Shown: positions 12,434 through 44,525 of the stretch, piece by piece
Numbering within the stretch: position 1 is the stretch's first letter
Layout of the letters: every line of letters starts with the position of its first letter
Assembly: GCA_951406725.2 (NCBI GenBank)
Contig: OX597838.1
Coordinates: forward strand, 1,178,001 to 1,242,000
Direction of reading: 5' to 3'
Length of the DNA stretch: 64,000 nt
Origin: Octopus vulgaris
Taxonomy: Eukaryota
Made by a program: the position numbers and the translations under genes
The notes under the pieces: generated by a model
Databases searched by the model: none
Told to the model about the DNA's origin: nothing
What the model saw: only the letters and a program-made list of their open reading frames with translations

Positions 12434-12626
12434 ATAATTTATTATATAGAAGGAGTTTACAGGACTAGTACTGTTTCATTCAAGAGAAATCTTCCTGAAG
12501 ATTTCTCTTGAATGAAACAGTACTAGTCCTGTAGAAGCTCCTTCTATATAATAAATTATTTTTACTCTGCTATGTATTGAGTACCTTACTTACTGTGGTT
12601 AACCCCGAATCAACCCGGGACCTACA
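12434..12626. mobile_element. Penelope pLTR/retrozyme-like fold-back element between (TA)n tracts
   Basis: About 60-bp near-perfect inverted arms (12434-12494 / 12497-12559) with a hammerhead at the centre; TA microsatellite on both sides. Confidence 0.6.
12491..12537 (+). ncRNA. Minimal type-I hammerhead ribozyme motif in a fold-back repeat
   Basis: CTTC-[CTGAAGA]-TTTC-TCTT-GAAT-[GAAA]-CAG-TACTAGTC-CTG-[TA]-GAAG: stem I CTTC/GAAG, stem III ACAG/CTGT, GUA cleavage triplet; the first stem II pair is a U-U mismatch. Confidence 0.7.
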
Positions 12627-12636
12627 TATGTATATG

Positions 12637-12684
<48 letters not shown>

Positions 12685-14761
12685 ACAGATGAACAACTTA
12701 TATTGTAATTTATAATAGAAAGAAATCAATTCTAACGACGTGTTATCCACTGGTGAGGCATCTTTATTAACGCAACTTGTTCAGTTGTGTGTGATGTGTT
12801 GTGTTTGAAGATAAACGTGAGTCAGTTTCCAGATCGTAAACAACACTCCTCTCTTTCTCTCTCCCTCCCTTCCTTCCTCTCTGCAACCCCAATACTAATG
12901 CCTACTGCTACTATCCCTCTGGTCAGAGGTCGTTGCCACGACACCATATTAACCCTGCTCTTACCATTTTATAAACACAATCTAAATACCAGATGGCGCC
13001 TTGGCTGCTTTTATCGAGCCAGATGTTTGATTTGAAGATCTTGCCACCAGTCCTTAAAGACCCTGGTAAAGGAGTGTTCGGAATGATGCTGCCAAGCGAT
13101 GCAGCATGGCGCGTGGTGATGAGAATCTGATGGCAGTGGAAGGTCAGGCGACCTCAATATTATCTCAAACCGGAAACATGGCCCGCTGCAGGGACCATGC
13201 TGTGCTACTTAGACCCAGGCCAAATCTGCGTTTGCAGACATTTTGTTGATAACGGCTCACTTGTTTCAGACGAGTAACAAACTGGACAGTGGTGCTGTCC
13301 AAGTTGGCACGGTTCTTCACGTGGGCACAGACGTGTGTCAAAGGTTAAGATAGATGTGATCAAACACGTGTTCTCGTGCCAGAAGGTTACCGAAATTCAC
13401 TGAAATAATATATTTAAACTAACCCCAACGTCAGCCAATGTCGAAACAAGATAGTCTTAGCTTGCAATGACACACACTCGGACGAGATGATCTTCTCAAT
13501 ACTGGTGGGTATCCTCTGGTGGGTGTCGTCCGGAAACTCGAAGACAATTTTCCTCGATGCTATCAGAGCAATGATTCTTCAAGTGGCCTCAACATCGAGG
13601 ATGGGGAAACGAATTGCTCCAACAATCGCTGGCTGCAATGTTTTGTGTGTCAATGGATTGACTTTATCTTTCCATTTTGTTTTATTAAATATTCATTCCG
13701 TTTTCAATTTCGAATTTACCTTCAATCAAATAGATTGGTAATGCAGTGTGTGTGTGTGTGTATACTCTTTTACTTGTTTCAGTCATTTAACTGCGGCCAT
13801 GCTGGAGCACCGCCTTTAATCGAACAAATCGACTTATTCCTTGTAAGCCTAGTACTTATTCTATCGGTCTCTTGCCGAACCGCCAAGTTACGGGGACGTA
13901 AACACACCAACATCGGTTGTCAAGCGATGTTGGGGGGGGGGGGGGGCAAACACACACACACATATATATATATATAGAGAGAGAGTGGTATATAGTCAAT
14001 ACTAGTGCCCTCCACTGTACAACGGTAAAGCGAGAGCTATTAGTCTTGTATACAAGCGCTCAGATTGTATGCTGTCCACTAGTTTTAAAATGAAGACCTA
14101 TTAAGCTATTCTATTTTTGAGAACCTATGTTAAACGGTATAAAGTAGATTAAAAGCTATTCGTCACACGTAGCTACGTTGTGCAGTGGTAGCAAATCGTT
14201 TTGGGCAGTAGGGTTTCGATTCACACTTGAGCCAGTTCACTTATTGTATCTTTGTATCAGGTGAAGGCGGTCAACACCGCTTATTCACAGGGAGTGAGGT
14301 GGGGGTGACTGAAGACCCAGTGTTCCATTAGTATTTATGTATCCGCCACCAGTTCAAATAGAGCCTCACATACACAATTATACTCACACACCCACATGTA
14401 GTTTTTATGTAAATATATGTCCAGTTCACATAAAAGAAAAAACAATTACGCACACACACACACACAGCACATATACTCTCATATACACAGACACACAGTT
14501 GTCAGATCAATTTCATAAGAGTGACAAACTTTTTAGAAAGTTGCCCAAGACGAAAATGTGTCAATGTGTGAGTATACTTTCTGCTACACGCAAGGCCAGA
14601 TTTTTGTTTGTAGGGAAGTCGATTACATCGACCCGGTTTTCAACTGGTATTTATTTTATTGACCCCAGAAAACATGAAAAGTCGACCTTGGCAGAATTTG
14701 AATATCGCATTCATGTGAATTCATTGGAACTCACTTGTATCTTAATTGTTTTTACTGAAAT

Positions 14762-14819
<58 letters not shown>

Positions 14820-14865
14820 AGAAAGTAAAAAGTTCAACACCGGAACATAGCATTAAATTATTAAC

Positions 14866-41401: not shown

Positions 41402-42288
41402 GTAAGTAAAGGATCTGACTCCATCTCTTTCACTTCCCTAACTCCTCTCTCAGTGGCCCCTTTCTCAAGGCTTGACTTCACTGCTGATGGTTTCTATTCT
41501 ATCGGACCCTAAAATGGCACGGCTCCACTCACTACACCAAATTCTCTCTCTCTCTCTCTCTTTCAAATCATATGTGATAAGTTTCTTGTTGCTAATGTAT
41601 CACACCATTGATATTTCTCTCACATTGGATGTGTCAAAACTGTGTGTATGTGTGTGTGTGTGTGTGTGCCTAAATGTGTGTTTGTATATATATGTATGTC
41701 CACTGTGTCTCTAAATAATGTGTTGTATGTCTGTACTTCCAGAACCTCTCCCACCATGACCACCACTACATTACATCAACTACATAGTGCATTCTTTAAC
41801 ACCCTAAGAACTGTAATGAACTCCGTTACATCACATCTGTGGAGGGTATTTCTTAACATAATGTGAACTGTGATGAATACCATCATACCACGTTTACTAC
41901 ATATGATATCCTTATAGAAACATATGCCACAGGCAGTGATAGAACATGCTGAAAGGAGCTTCAATACACTACCCTGTCCCCTGTCCCATCATCATCATCG
42001 TCATCATCATCACCATAGTCATTATTGTTGCATGTAGGATGAACCTAGCTGTCAGAGGTTTAACAAGATGGGGCAGGCTGGGGTTATGGTGACACAGGTT
42101 GTTTGGTGGAGAAGACTGAAGTTGACACTTTTCTCTTCATTCAAACCCTTATCAACTTTTTCAAGTTTCACTTGGAAAAGAAAGGACTGAAAGTGGAGGG
42201 GGAAGTATTTTTTCCCAGCAAATTTGTCAAAAGGTGAGTGATTCTGGCATAAAATGGTTAAGGTGACTGGACCCATCATCATCACCAT

Positions 42289-43500
42289 TATTATTATTAT
42301 TACTCATCATCATGGCAATCCCTCAAGGTCGAGGATGATGGTCTTCGCGCAAATTTACTGGGGAGTCCGTAGGTGACCGATAAGACCAATACTTGCTTGA
42401 AAAGATCGGTCGCAGTGCGAACATCTAGTGCCGGAAGGGAGAGTCGCACATGGTTGTTGTTGGCGCTCCTTCCGTCGTCTTTTCTCCTCCAGCTCTGCAG
42501 ACCTTTTGACTCGAAAGTCGCTGTTCCCTCATGGATGGTGGTTTTCCAGAGTGGTCTGTTTTTTGCCGTTTCCTCCCACTTAGTGAAGTCGATGTCACAC
42601 TTTTTGAGGTTTGTTTTCAGGGAGTCCTTGCAGCGTTTCTTCTGGCCTCCTTTTGTACGCTTGCCGTCTTTGAGTTGTGAGTAGAATATCTGTTTGGGAA
42701 GTCGTTCGTCAGTCATTCTGACCATGTGGCTGCTCCATCTTAGTTGGCCTTTGATGACATAGGCTTCGATGCTGGTCATTTTTGCTTCTTGTAGCACGCT
42801 GACGTTTGTTCTACCGTCTTCTCAGCTGATGTTAAGGATCTTCCGAAGACAGCGTTGGTGAAATTTCTCGAGCGTTTTCAGGTGGTGACTATACGGGGTC
42901 CAGGTTTCGGATGCATAAAGGAGGGTTGGAATACTGACTGCCCTGTCCACCATGAGTTTGGTTTCAGTTCGGATGTCCCGATCAGCAAAAACTCTTGTTT
43001 GAAGCTTGCCGAAAGCTGTTCCTGCACACTTCAGATGGTGTTGGATTTCATTGCTGAGGTCTACCTTTGCTGACAGATGGCTCCCAAGGTAGCAGAAATG
43101 GTTCACATTTTCCAGTGGAATTCCTTCAAGTTGAATCGATGGCGGGTTGTCAACACAGGTATTGGGAGGAGGTTGGTAGAGTAAGTGAGTCTTCTTGATG
43201 TTGATGCTCAGTCCAAGTTTAGTTGAAAAGCATTTAGGATCTGTTGGAGGTGATCCTCTCTGTAAGCTGCTACACTGTTGTCGTCGGCATATTGGAACTC
43301 TAGCAAGCTTCGCACCATTGTCTTTGACGTACTTTTGAGGTGAGCGAGGTTGAAAAGCTTGCCGTCCATTCTGTACGAGATCTCGATGCCAGGTAGAAGG
43401 TCATCTCGTATGACGTGCAACACTGTCGCGATAAAGATGGTAAAGAGAGTTGGCACTATCATGCAGCCTTGCTTCACTCCGGAGGTGACTTTAAAGGGCT
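42289..43500 (-). mobile_element. 5'-truncated RTE-clade (BovB-like) LINE, fairly young
   Basis: GVKQGC..PTLF, FQYADD, FCYLGS, IPTLLYASETW, FHQRCLRKIL, LRW..H..RM..RLPKQIFYSQL and GGQKKR.KD.LK motifs; (TAA)n tail at about 42290. Confidence 0.95.
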
Positions 43501-43732
43501 TTAAATTGTATATTGTGGTGATTATTATTACTATTATTATTATTCTTAAGACAGTGAGCCGGCAGAATCATTAGCACACCGGGCATACGTTCTGAGTTCA
43601 ATTCTGCCAAGGTCAGCTTTCCTCTTCATTCTTTCAGGGTTGATGAAATAAGTACCAGTGAAACACTGGGGTCATTGTAATCAACTAGTCCCCTCCCCAC
43701 AAATTTCAGGCTTTGTGCCTTTAGTAGAAAGG

Positions 43733-44150
43733 ATTATTACTATTATTTTGGTCTGTCTCAGGTTAGGTCTTATTCCTGGTAAGGATTCTGTTGATACCGG
43801 GTTTACTACCGGTGACCTTAGGTATCCACACGTTTTCAGCAGTCTTTCAAGTGCTTAGAACCCGAGCTCTACTGGGTATTCTATTCCAATCTCCTTTAGC
43901 CATTTGTCTATATCTTGGTTTACTGTTCCCAACACACCAATTATTATAGGCACAGCCTTTACTGTTCTCGTGCTCCGAATTCTTCCTATTTCAAAATTTA
44001 AGGGATTGTATTTTTTTTGCTTTTTTGTCCCCTTTCTTTTTGACCCCAGAATCAAACAGGCATGATGGGTCAATTAGTAAGCAGATATTATTATTTTGTT
44101 TATGAATTTGTGTTGCAAGACTCCTCATGTGAAACTGTGTGTTGAAACAG
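43733..44150 (-). mobile_element. R4/Dong-clade LINE 3' end (restriction-like endonuclease domain)
   Basis: LLIDPSCLFD...KKY..L..EI.RI....V..VPIIIGVLGTV...KWL..IGI; ends in a TAA-repeat tail. Confidence 0.8.
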
Positions 44151-44156
44151 ATATTC

Positions 44157-44525
44157 TTGTATTTTGGGATGGTCAATTTTTTTGTTTTTGTTTTTCCAAA
44201 TAAACACATGCGCCATATATTCATTCTTCACTTGCTTATCACTGTTATTATTCTAACGAATGTCCATTGTCCGGAAATCTTTCATCACACATCTGTGACC
44301 TCTTCAATGACATTTTCCATCCTCATGTGTCAATCATGGATTAAGCAGAGCAAGAGCACACACAAGAATGGAAAGTGTTGCTGAAGAGGTCACAGATGTG
44401 TGACACAGGATTTACGGACAAATGACATTCGTTAGAATAAGAACAGTAATAAACGAGTGGAGAACGAATATTTAGTGCCTGTGTTTATTTAGCAAAAAAA
44501 AAAAAAAGACCATCCTGAAATACAA
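44157..44525. mobile_element. Older head-to-head inverted repeat with a decayed hammerhead core in each arm
   Basis: Arms 44157-44330 / 44360-44525, roughly 80% identical by eye; both carry (C/T)TGAAGA-GGTCACAGATGTGTGA. Confidence 0.5.

Follow-up and report, generated by a model that had tools for sequence, protein, structure and literature searches.

A window of 64,000 nucleotides (nt) of the Octopus vulgaris genome (assembly GCA_951406725.2, contig OX597838.1, positions 1,178,001 to 1,242,000 of the forward strand) contains three fold-back elements, designated E1, E2 and E3, each with two copies of one sequence pointing away from each other in or next to a microsatellite. We propose that such a fold-back consists of two 5'-end stubs of a protein-coding Penelope-like element (PLE), placed head to head in the microsatellite and originating from two primed complementary DNAs (cDNAs) that were joined to each other; we give this reading a probability of roughly 0.7. 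In a genome rich in PLEs, such elements are nothing unusual; their value lies in the statistics of arm ends and arm pairing. Across four families, these statistics yield three rules: a short arm is paired with a tailed arm, the joints lie at the predicted capped transcript start, and the predicted cleavage site of the hammerhead ribozyme is not a hotspot of arm ends.

Pairing and joining of the arms

In each family, as published for PLEs, the 3' end comes in two forms, short or extended by a tail (about 55-70 nt in E1-E3), and the fold-backs combine one of each. One short and one long (tailed) arm were present in 47/47 pairs of E1, 20/20 of E2 (including four combinations from two triple loci), 10/11 of E3 and 11/11 of N4, a fourth family described below, giving 88/89 in total. 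On the 5' side, the arm that reached further was the long one in 14 pairs and the short one in 13; in 31 pairs, the two ended within 4 nt of each other. A reverse transcript that folds back on itself cannot add a missing tail, and if the tailed arm were the one to fold back, it would always be the longest; therefore, at least the 13 cases require two cDNAs that were primed separately.

The competing idea is that both arms derive from a single reverse transcript, or from an antisense template as has been suggested for rotifer PLEs, that serves as its own template after folding back, and that the endonuclease (EN) trims the tail from one end. Self-priming was proposed for head-to-head palindromic PLE joints (PMC3846280), and the tail has been ascribed to resolution by the EN (PMC8557442; here and below, cited papers are drawn on for those portions of them that were available). 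Palindromic joints are indeed common, and both arms carried the same subfamily allele in 40/41 E1 pairs, as is compatible with self-copying. Yet a self-copy cannot exceed its template, whereas the short arm reached further 5' in 13 of the 27 informative pairs, and in the E2 copy of the window it exceeds the tailed arm by about 50 nt. Moreover, the extra G residues at the joints (see below) indicate a sense, capped template. The statistics thus favour two oppositely primed, microhomology-joined cDNAs over single-strand self-priming, which we regard as unlikely. Since the allele is shared, the two cDNAs must have had a single source, either one RNA that was copied twice or two sister RNAs.

The joints were formed independently of each other: the 49 E1 fold-backs contain 40 different junction sequences, of which a few recur identically, up to 4 times. 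They show short overlaps (microhomology) and short templated inserts, both of which are typical of microhomology end-joining. This bears on the possibility that the fold-back arose only once, as a non-autonomous unit similar to a miniature inverted-repeat transposable element (MITE) or a retrozyme, and spreads as such. There are thousands of short copies, with 4807, 3402 and 391 exact 22-mer matches for E1, E2 and E3, respectively, in the 2.8-Gb genome (0 for reversed controls), and the few recurring junctions also fit a single origin. But a MITE has a fixed interior and symmetric terminal inverted repeats, whereas we found 40 junction types among 49 copies, the same simple joints in different subfamilies, and asymmetric arms. 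The families also continue into open reading frames (ORFs), and the loci inspected contained no stubs arrayed as tandem monomers. Such a unit is therefore very improbable.

An assembly artefact of palindromic reads is the least credible explanation, although E1 is a near-perfect hairpin in a low-complexity tract and none of the public contigs spanned a junction of the window itself. The arms of E2 and E3 are asymmetric and diverged, a fold-back joint of the E1 family forms the loose end of a contig from an independent public run (X1, place 888), and the strict combination of a short and a long arm would be unexpected for chimeras.

In the mechanism that we suggest, the PLE enzyme would prime both strands of the target, and cDNA synthesis would begin at two reverse transcriptase (RT) start sites and proceed to the capped 5' end predicted for the RNA, with uncleaved RNA as the usual template. 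Each insertion would contain two cDNAs, the ends of which would be joined, likely by microhomology. Polymerase theta-like end-joining is a host route for sealing such ends, and it may seal the two cDNAs here. The hammerhead is found at the centre of the fold-back because the transcript starts with it or shortly upstream of it; most insertions here are ORF-less stubs with both arms stopping at the predicted +1. One may further speculate that integration is symmetric and involves a dimeric enzyme and two sister transcripts, with one strand primed at the short and the other at the long site and the products joined head to head, and that the self-complementary stem III serves as a signal for RNA dimerisation, by which the two 5' ends are paired, rather than as part of a nuclease. 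We consider this extension rather doubtful. If true, it would explain why a ribozyme that is dispensable for insertion is retained, even with a U4C core.

Ends of the arms and the blind test

Loci were retrieved with downstream patterns and taken in genome order, and the 5' extent of each arm was measured relative to the base of the pile-up, set as offset 0. The E1 sample comprised 60 loci (the 30 first matches, 10 picked as short pairs and 20 further ones; 10 long pairs were excluded), and 50 loci each were used for E2 and for E3, the latter scored on the majority reference. Among 81 E1 arms, 45 ended at -3 to +5 and 9 at +6 to +12, 15 read through, 8 ended within stems II/III and 4 just upstream, and none ended at +42 to +45. 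The anchor used for E1 is blind to arms that start beyond the cut; with a separate downstream anchor, none of the 47 pairs had an arm ending at the cut. For E2 (65 arms), 26 ends were located at -3 to +5, 13 at +6 to +15, 16 further in, 6 at the edge of the anchor and 4 upstream. Twelve of the 59 E3 arms read through, and the highest rate was observed at -5 to +11 (14 arms). Expressed as arm ends per 100 nt at risk, the rates at +1 and inside stems II/III were 11.9 versus 0.36 for E1 (n=81), 18.3 versus 0.65 for E2 (n=65) and 3.1 versus 0.19 for E3 (n=59).

Several features suggest that the pile-up site is the start site of RNA polymerase II. Offset 0 of E1 is the first base of stem I, 29 nt below a TATAAA box; that of E2 lies 2 nt above stem I, with a CCAAT motif at -71; and the E3 peak has a TATA-like box 27 nt upstream and the hammerhead core 48 nt downstream. 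The base preceding +1, unless explained by the partner arm, was a G in 11/14 E1 and 4/5 E3 cases, a generous count that includes some bases in templated inserts and two that share one junction; in two of the E1 cases without a G, a variant of the subfamily had been read through. For N4, one extra G was found by script and one more by eye, as compared to two C. In L1, a non-templated G is known to be added opposite the cap. With a TATA-like box 27-30 nt upstream in three of the four families and the apparently non-templated G, initiation at this position is the probable cause of the pile-up. Loose contig ends at +1 in public RNA contigs may be transcribed genomic stubs and were not used as evidence for the start site. 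In a literature search, we found no PLE inversion joints mapped to the start site, although subscription papers, figures and supplements might hold such data.

The family N4, which is of the Neptune type and encodes RVT_1 and GIY-YIG domains according to Pfam, was discovered nested in an E1 copy. Its intact ORF beside E1 arms (locus L170) was rejected as a partner of E1, as it belongs to the nested N4 with its own pseudo-long terminal repeat (pLTR) and hammerhead. For N4, the predictions were written beforehand: arms should end 28-32 nt below the TATA-like box if the transcript start determines them, and at stem I or at the cut if the ribozyme does. The 70 loci yielded 77 arms, 40 of which read through and 37 of which were truncated; 25 of the 37 truncated arms ended at -3 to +11 of a site 30 nt below the TATA-like box, 8 of them exactly at 0. 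Stem I lies 42 nt, and the core 46 nt, downstream of this site. Two arms ended at the 5' strand of stem I, and none of the 77 at the cut. Two apparent inner ends were internal deletions in arms that reach +1. The 5' ends of 20 full-length N4 copies were mostly uninformative: 11 lack an exact sense core, and 7 of the 9 others continue into a partial tandem copy.

The original prediction had tied the inversion breakpoints to the stems of the ribozyme, as would be the case if the cDNA ran off at the self-cleaved RNA end or folded back on stem I, and if stem I complementarity joined the arms. The E2 copy in the window fits this idea exactly: its long arm ends in the 3' strand of stem I, and the arms overlap at the joint by 10 nt of stem I microhomology. 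By eye, most of the 30 best matches to the whole element repeat this joint, but a whole-element query selects for it; when the query left out the junction, the joint was rare among the copies retrieved, again as judged by eye. Moreover, the peaks of E1 and E2 coincide with the 5' edge of stem I, and 6 of 22 inner ends of E3 fall at stem I (p=0.02 for a fixed window, 0.16 in a scan). On the other hand, no arm ended at the cut in the 47 E1 pairs or among the 77 N4 arms, only two N4 arms ended at stem I, and the E3 peak lies well above the core. Hammerhead mutants of a PLE insert normally in vitro (PMC11167929), and Naiads form inversions without canonical hammerheads (PMC8557442). As a general rule, a ribozyme-determined breakpoint is contradicted by the N4 test and thus largely refuted, and we regard the underlying mechanism as improbable. 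What is left of the prediction are the stem I joint of the E2 window copy and the weak stem I cluster of E3, so that a minor cleavage- or stem-guided route is possible.

These two observations, the former representing a minority class, weigh against our proposal that joined cDNAs run to the transcript start, as do several others. In E3, weaker clusters were present at stem I (7 arms, 1.5 per 100 nt) and near the cut (5 arms, 0.9), and 6/16 inner ends of E2 (p=0.09) and 3/22 of E3 (p=0.39) lie near the cut. The start sites are predictions from sequence; offset 0 was chosen for E1-E3 after the data had been seen and was blind only for N4, and E2 has no good TATA box at -30. Two different templates are almost never visible, because the arms share the allele in 40/41 E1 pairs. 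Finally, none of 20 sampled E1 copies has both an ATG and an open frame.

The window copies, their families and their surroundings

The features of the three fold-backs are as follows; positions refer to the window.

12043..12433, (TA)n-type target tract left of E1
12434..12494, minus strand, E1 short arm, inverted, from predicted-transcript offset +8 to the short RT-start site, without the first two core bases
12491..12626, plus strand, E1 long (tailed) arm, from offset +2 to the long RT-start site, Hydra-type family
12491-12494, E1 junction microhomology (CTTC), 4 nt common to both arms
12491..12539, plus strand, E1 type I hammerhead motif retaining 4 of 6 bp of stem I, core at 12495-12501, predicted cut after 12533
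12627..12674, (TA)n-type target tract right of E1
21509..21546, (TA)19 target tract left of E2
21547..21648, minus strand, E2 long (tailed) arm, inverted, 5' end in the 3' strand of stem I, just beyond the predicted cut
21639..21719, plus strand, E2 short arm with the whole hammerhead, second Hydra-type family
21639-21652/21683-21697, 14-bp stem I of the E2 hammerhead with one bulge; CCGACGA core at 21653, predicted cut after 21682
21639-21648, E2 junction microhomology, 10 nt, stem I complementarity
21720..21779, (TA)n target tract right of E2
44098..44330, minus strand, E3 long (tailed) arm, inverted, from offset +25, tail at about 44098-44150, Nematis-like family
44274-44307, decayed hammerhead of the E3 long arm
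44336..44528, plus strand, E3 short arm, from offset +3
44381-44415, decayed hammerhead of the E3 short arm, GAAA replaced by ACAG
44529..44562, (TAT)11 target tract right of E3

That the window holds three fold-backs of unrelated sequence in or next to microsatellites was borne out. In E1 (12434-12626), the 61-nt left arm and the right arm are identical in 61/61 aligned columns with 2 gaps, in E2 (21547-21719) 39/41 and in E3 144/174 aligned columns are identical, and the three have no similarity to each other in a within-window comparison. E1 and E2 are embedded in (TA)n, and E3 adjoins (TAT)n. The left boundary of E3 is 44098 rather than 44157 as first described, since a 59-nt tail had been overlooked.

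A hammerhead at or beside the junction had been proposed for all three elements; this holds for E1 and E2. A type I descriptor gave two hits in the window, E1 and E2, while 60 dinucleotide shuffles averaged 0.017 hits and never reached two. The E1 core, which begins 4 nt from the junction, reads CUGAAGA..GAAA..GUA, with 4 bp of stem I remaining; E2 has all three stems and a non-canonical CCGACGA core. In E3, both cores are damaged (C3 to U in the left arm, GAAA to ACAG in the right arm) and are separated from the arm ends by 23 and 45 nt. Here, an intact hammerhead, canonical and with a dimer-only stem III, exists only in the family majority. The canonical form (CUGANGA, GAAA and NUH with stems I-III) was present in 53/57 E1 copies but in only 4/28 of E2, most of which carry U4C, with CCGACGA as the main core form (11/28). 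A U4C core is the main form in two unrelated families, E2 and N4, the displayed copies of the latter reading CCGAAGA. Rfam assigned no hammerhead family to E1 (native copy), E2 or E3, and there was none among the 150 listed of 237 window-wide matches. The best predicted fold of E1 retains stems I and III, whereas for E2 and E3 the hammerhead fold is 3.8 and 4.7 kcal/mol away from the best one, and dimers are predicted to be more stable than two monomers. Self-cleavage is a prediction for these families. Rfam matches to microRNAs (miRNAs) were rejected as they score below the gathering thresholds and lie mostly on (TA)n or hairpins. Two hammerhead-like strings were also rejected: the one at 9144 has no stems as judged by eye, and the one at 42843 lies within what looks by eye like an RTE-type long interspersed element (LINE) RT fragment on the minus strand (about 42600-43200).

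The search for RT and GIY-YIG partners, as originally suggested, was successful. In 12/20 ORF-bearing loci, the E1 pLTR runs past the tail into an ORF with an ATG 45 nt after the tail, and the end of the ORF continues via the 3' untranslated region (UTR) into a pLTR. The protein contains RWR, SDKT, YRDD, a CxCx5C linker (CNCHDKTTC) and a terminal CxxC/CxH (CDLC..E..N..CMH), and it lacks CCHH. This, a canonical pLTR hammerhead and (TA)n targeting agree with the Hydra clade, which is defined by RWK, DKT, a CxCx5C linker, the absence of CCHH and terminal CxxC and CxH motifs (PMC8557442, section 11). Pfam gave nothing significant for the E1 ORF, and a PDB sequence search no match for either ORF tried; the E1 ORF is 21% identical to the RT and GIY-YIG protein of N4 (E=2e-4), and one homologue is named GIY-YIG endonuclease. 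Long E2 copies run upstream into a second Hydra-type EN on the same strand (L404 and L411), 38-44% identical to the E1 ORF. An RT remnant with RWK/SDKT in an adjoining inverted arm (L406) probably belongs to E2, all ORF copies of which are broken. Long E3 copies extend into a GIY-YIG end with a short Cx4CxxC linker, and the hammerhead lies 329-851 nt downstream of the EN match in 9/15 loci. For E3, a remnant reaching from the RT thumb to the EN was found in L421 and no intact ORF. L431 represents a younger sister family with an intact RT-EN frame, the top protein match of which is 99% identical and labelled Octopus vulgaris. The linker spacing of E3 agrees by eye with the Nematis rows in the supplement of PMC8557442. 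Judged from these motifs, E1 and E2 appear to be Hydra-type, and E3, placed by linker length, Nematis-like; the elements are new families of known PLE clades. The pLTRs are linked to ORFs of the RT/GIY-YIG type (remnants in E2 and E3), and therefore the families are not non-coding, as originally thought: E1-E3 are 5' stubs of coding PLEs. The further expectations, that is PLE origin, a pLTR hammerhead, an inverted truncated copy, microsatellite targeting and several families, are supported. The best copies are 96-99% identical in E1, 87-97% in E2 and about 85% in E3, which is an old family.

Some observations concern these families more generally. The same frameshift in a C run was seen in 15/17 readable E1 ORF copies (L294-L313), a sample that is biased because the query came from a frameshifted copy; the subfamily may be dead, the shift may be programmed, or the homopolymer may carry a systematic error. 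Long head-to-head E1 insertions have arms of 2-3.5 kb (L170, L166-L169), and their microsatellite-rich 3' UTRs themselves attract nested PLE insertions. The ORF of the E3 sister family (L431:1440-4619) has an N/T-rich N-terminal region of low complexity, and its hammerhead is related to that of E3, with stems that differ, by eye, by compensating pairs. N4, a young family with its own hammerhead, is a good candidate for a currently active PLE: 58/58 scored copies (L245-L273, e.g. G000:C3:30327514-30329820) are about 100% identical in protein, most have an open frame of 775 amino acids, the unit measures 4271 bp, and there are 1668 exact 24-mer matches.

The window contains other inverted structures. 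At 10700-10852 / 11004-11152, an inverted pair (93% over 153 nt, 150-nt spacer), in which no hammerhead core was found, is followed by a 50-nt hairpin at 11184-11233. A near-perfect inverted repeat (91%) at 37966-38134 is centred on a (TA)n/(ATC)n tract and is either MITE-like or an inverted duplication of the flank. At 32302-32610 and 34276-34627, two copies of a dispersed repeat resembling short interspersed elements (SINEs), which has many other copies in the window, form inverted pairs around a short microsatellite. Finally, imperfect fold-backs (75-89%) without a hammerhead core are located at 1096-1249, 23409-23530 and 54973-55019.

Comparison with known systems

The closest relatives are PLEs of the Hydra clade (Hydra-1_Obim, Hydra-2_Amil and Hydra-2_Ajap; PMC8557442), with which E1 shares the ORF motifs, E2 the ORF remnants, and both the (TA)n targets. 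As in the Hydra hammerhead table (File S2 of PMC8557442), E1 has, by eye, an extra U-U pair and an acag/ctgt stem III, and E2 shares ctgt/acag in stem I and actc-N-gagt in stem III with Hydra-2_Amil, again by eye. The E1 protein resembles the Hydra-1_Obim entry by eye, but hammerhead and ORF differ, also by eye, indicating separate families. Published Hydra elements are smaller than 3 kb, a typical and not a defining trait, whereas the E1 unit comprises about 5.2 kb as judged from tandem spacing, with a microsatellite-rich 3' UTR of more than 3 kb. E2 deviates from the clade by its mostly CCGACGA core.

Inverted 5'-truncated copies, tails, hammerheads and (TA)n targets are published PLE traits, and the formation of the inversions is called unresolved (PMC8557442). 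A canonical insertion has an inverted 5'-truncated pLTR and a tail of 30-40 bp, as in Penelope, Adineta Pen and anole PAc (PMC3846280, PMC8557442, PMC11167929; for further background, see PMC6155905 and PMC8969392). The E1-E3 families have in common with it the head-to-head copy, the tail at one end, the pLTR TATA and the microhomology joints; they differ by tails of about 55-70 nt, by mostly ORF-less stubs that end at the predicted +1, and by the nearly invariant combination of a short and a long arm. The anole enzyme cleaves and extends both strands in vitro, two internal RT starts define the tail, and the hammerhead is dispensable (PMC11167929). Our rules bear on the formation of tandem and inverted PLE structures, which is named as an open question in PMC8557442, and the start-site and short/long rules provide a modest new handle on the inversion mechanism.

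Non-LTR retrozymes, animal repeats with type I hammerheads (bioRxiv 10.64898/2026.07.22.740005), are likewise short, non-coding, hammerhead-bearing and derived from pLTRs. They are direct tandem repeats cut to monomers and circles, whereas E1-E3 are single inverted pairs with ends away from the cut, and no direct tandem monomers bounded by cut sites were found for them. The three rules also caution annotators that such hairpins are PLE stubs and not MITEs, miRNA precursors or retrozymes. In twin priming of L1, both target strands prime reverse transcription, and the cDNAs, which cover non-overlapping parts of one RNA, are joined by microhomology. Priming on both strands and joining by microhomology would be alike in the fold-backs; here, both arms copy the same 5' segment, and therefore either two passes over one RNA or two RNAs are needed.

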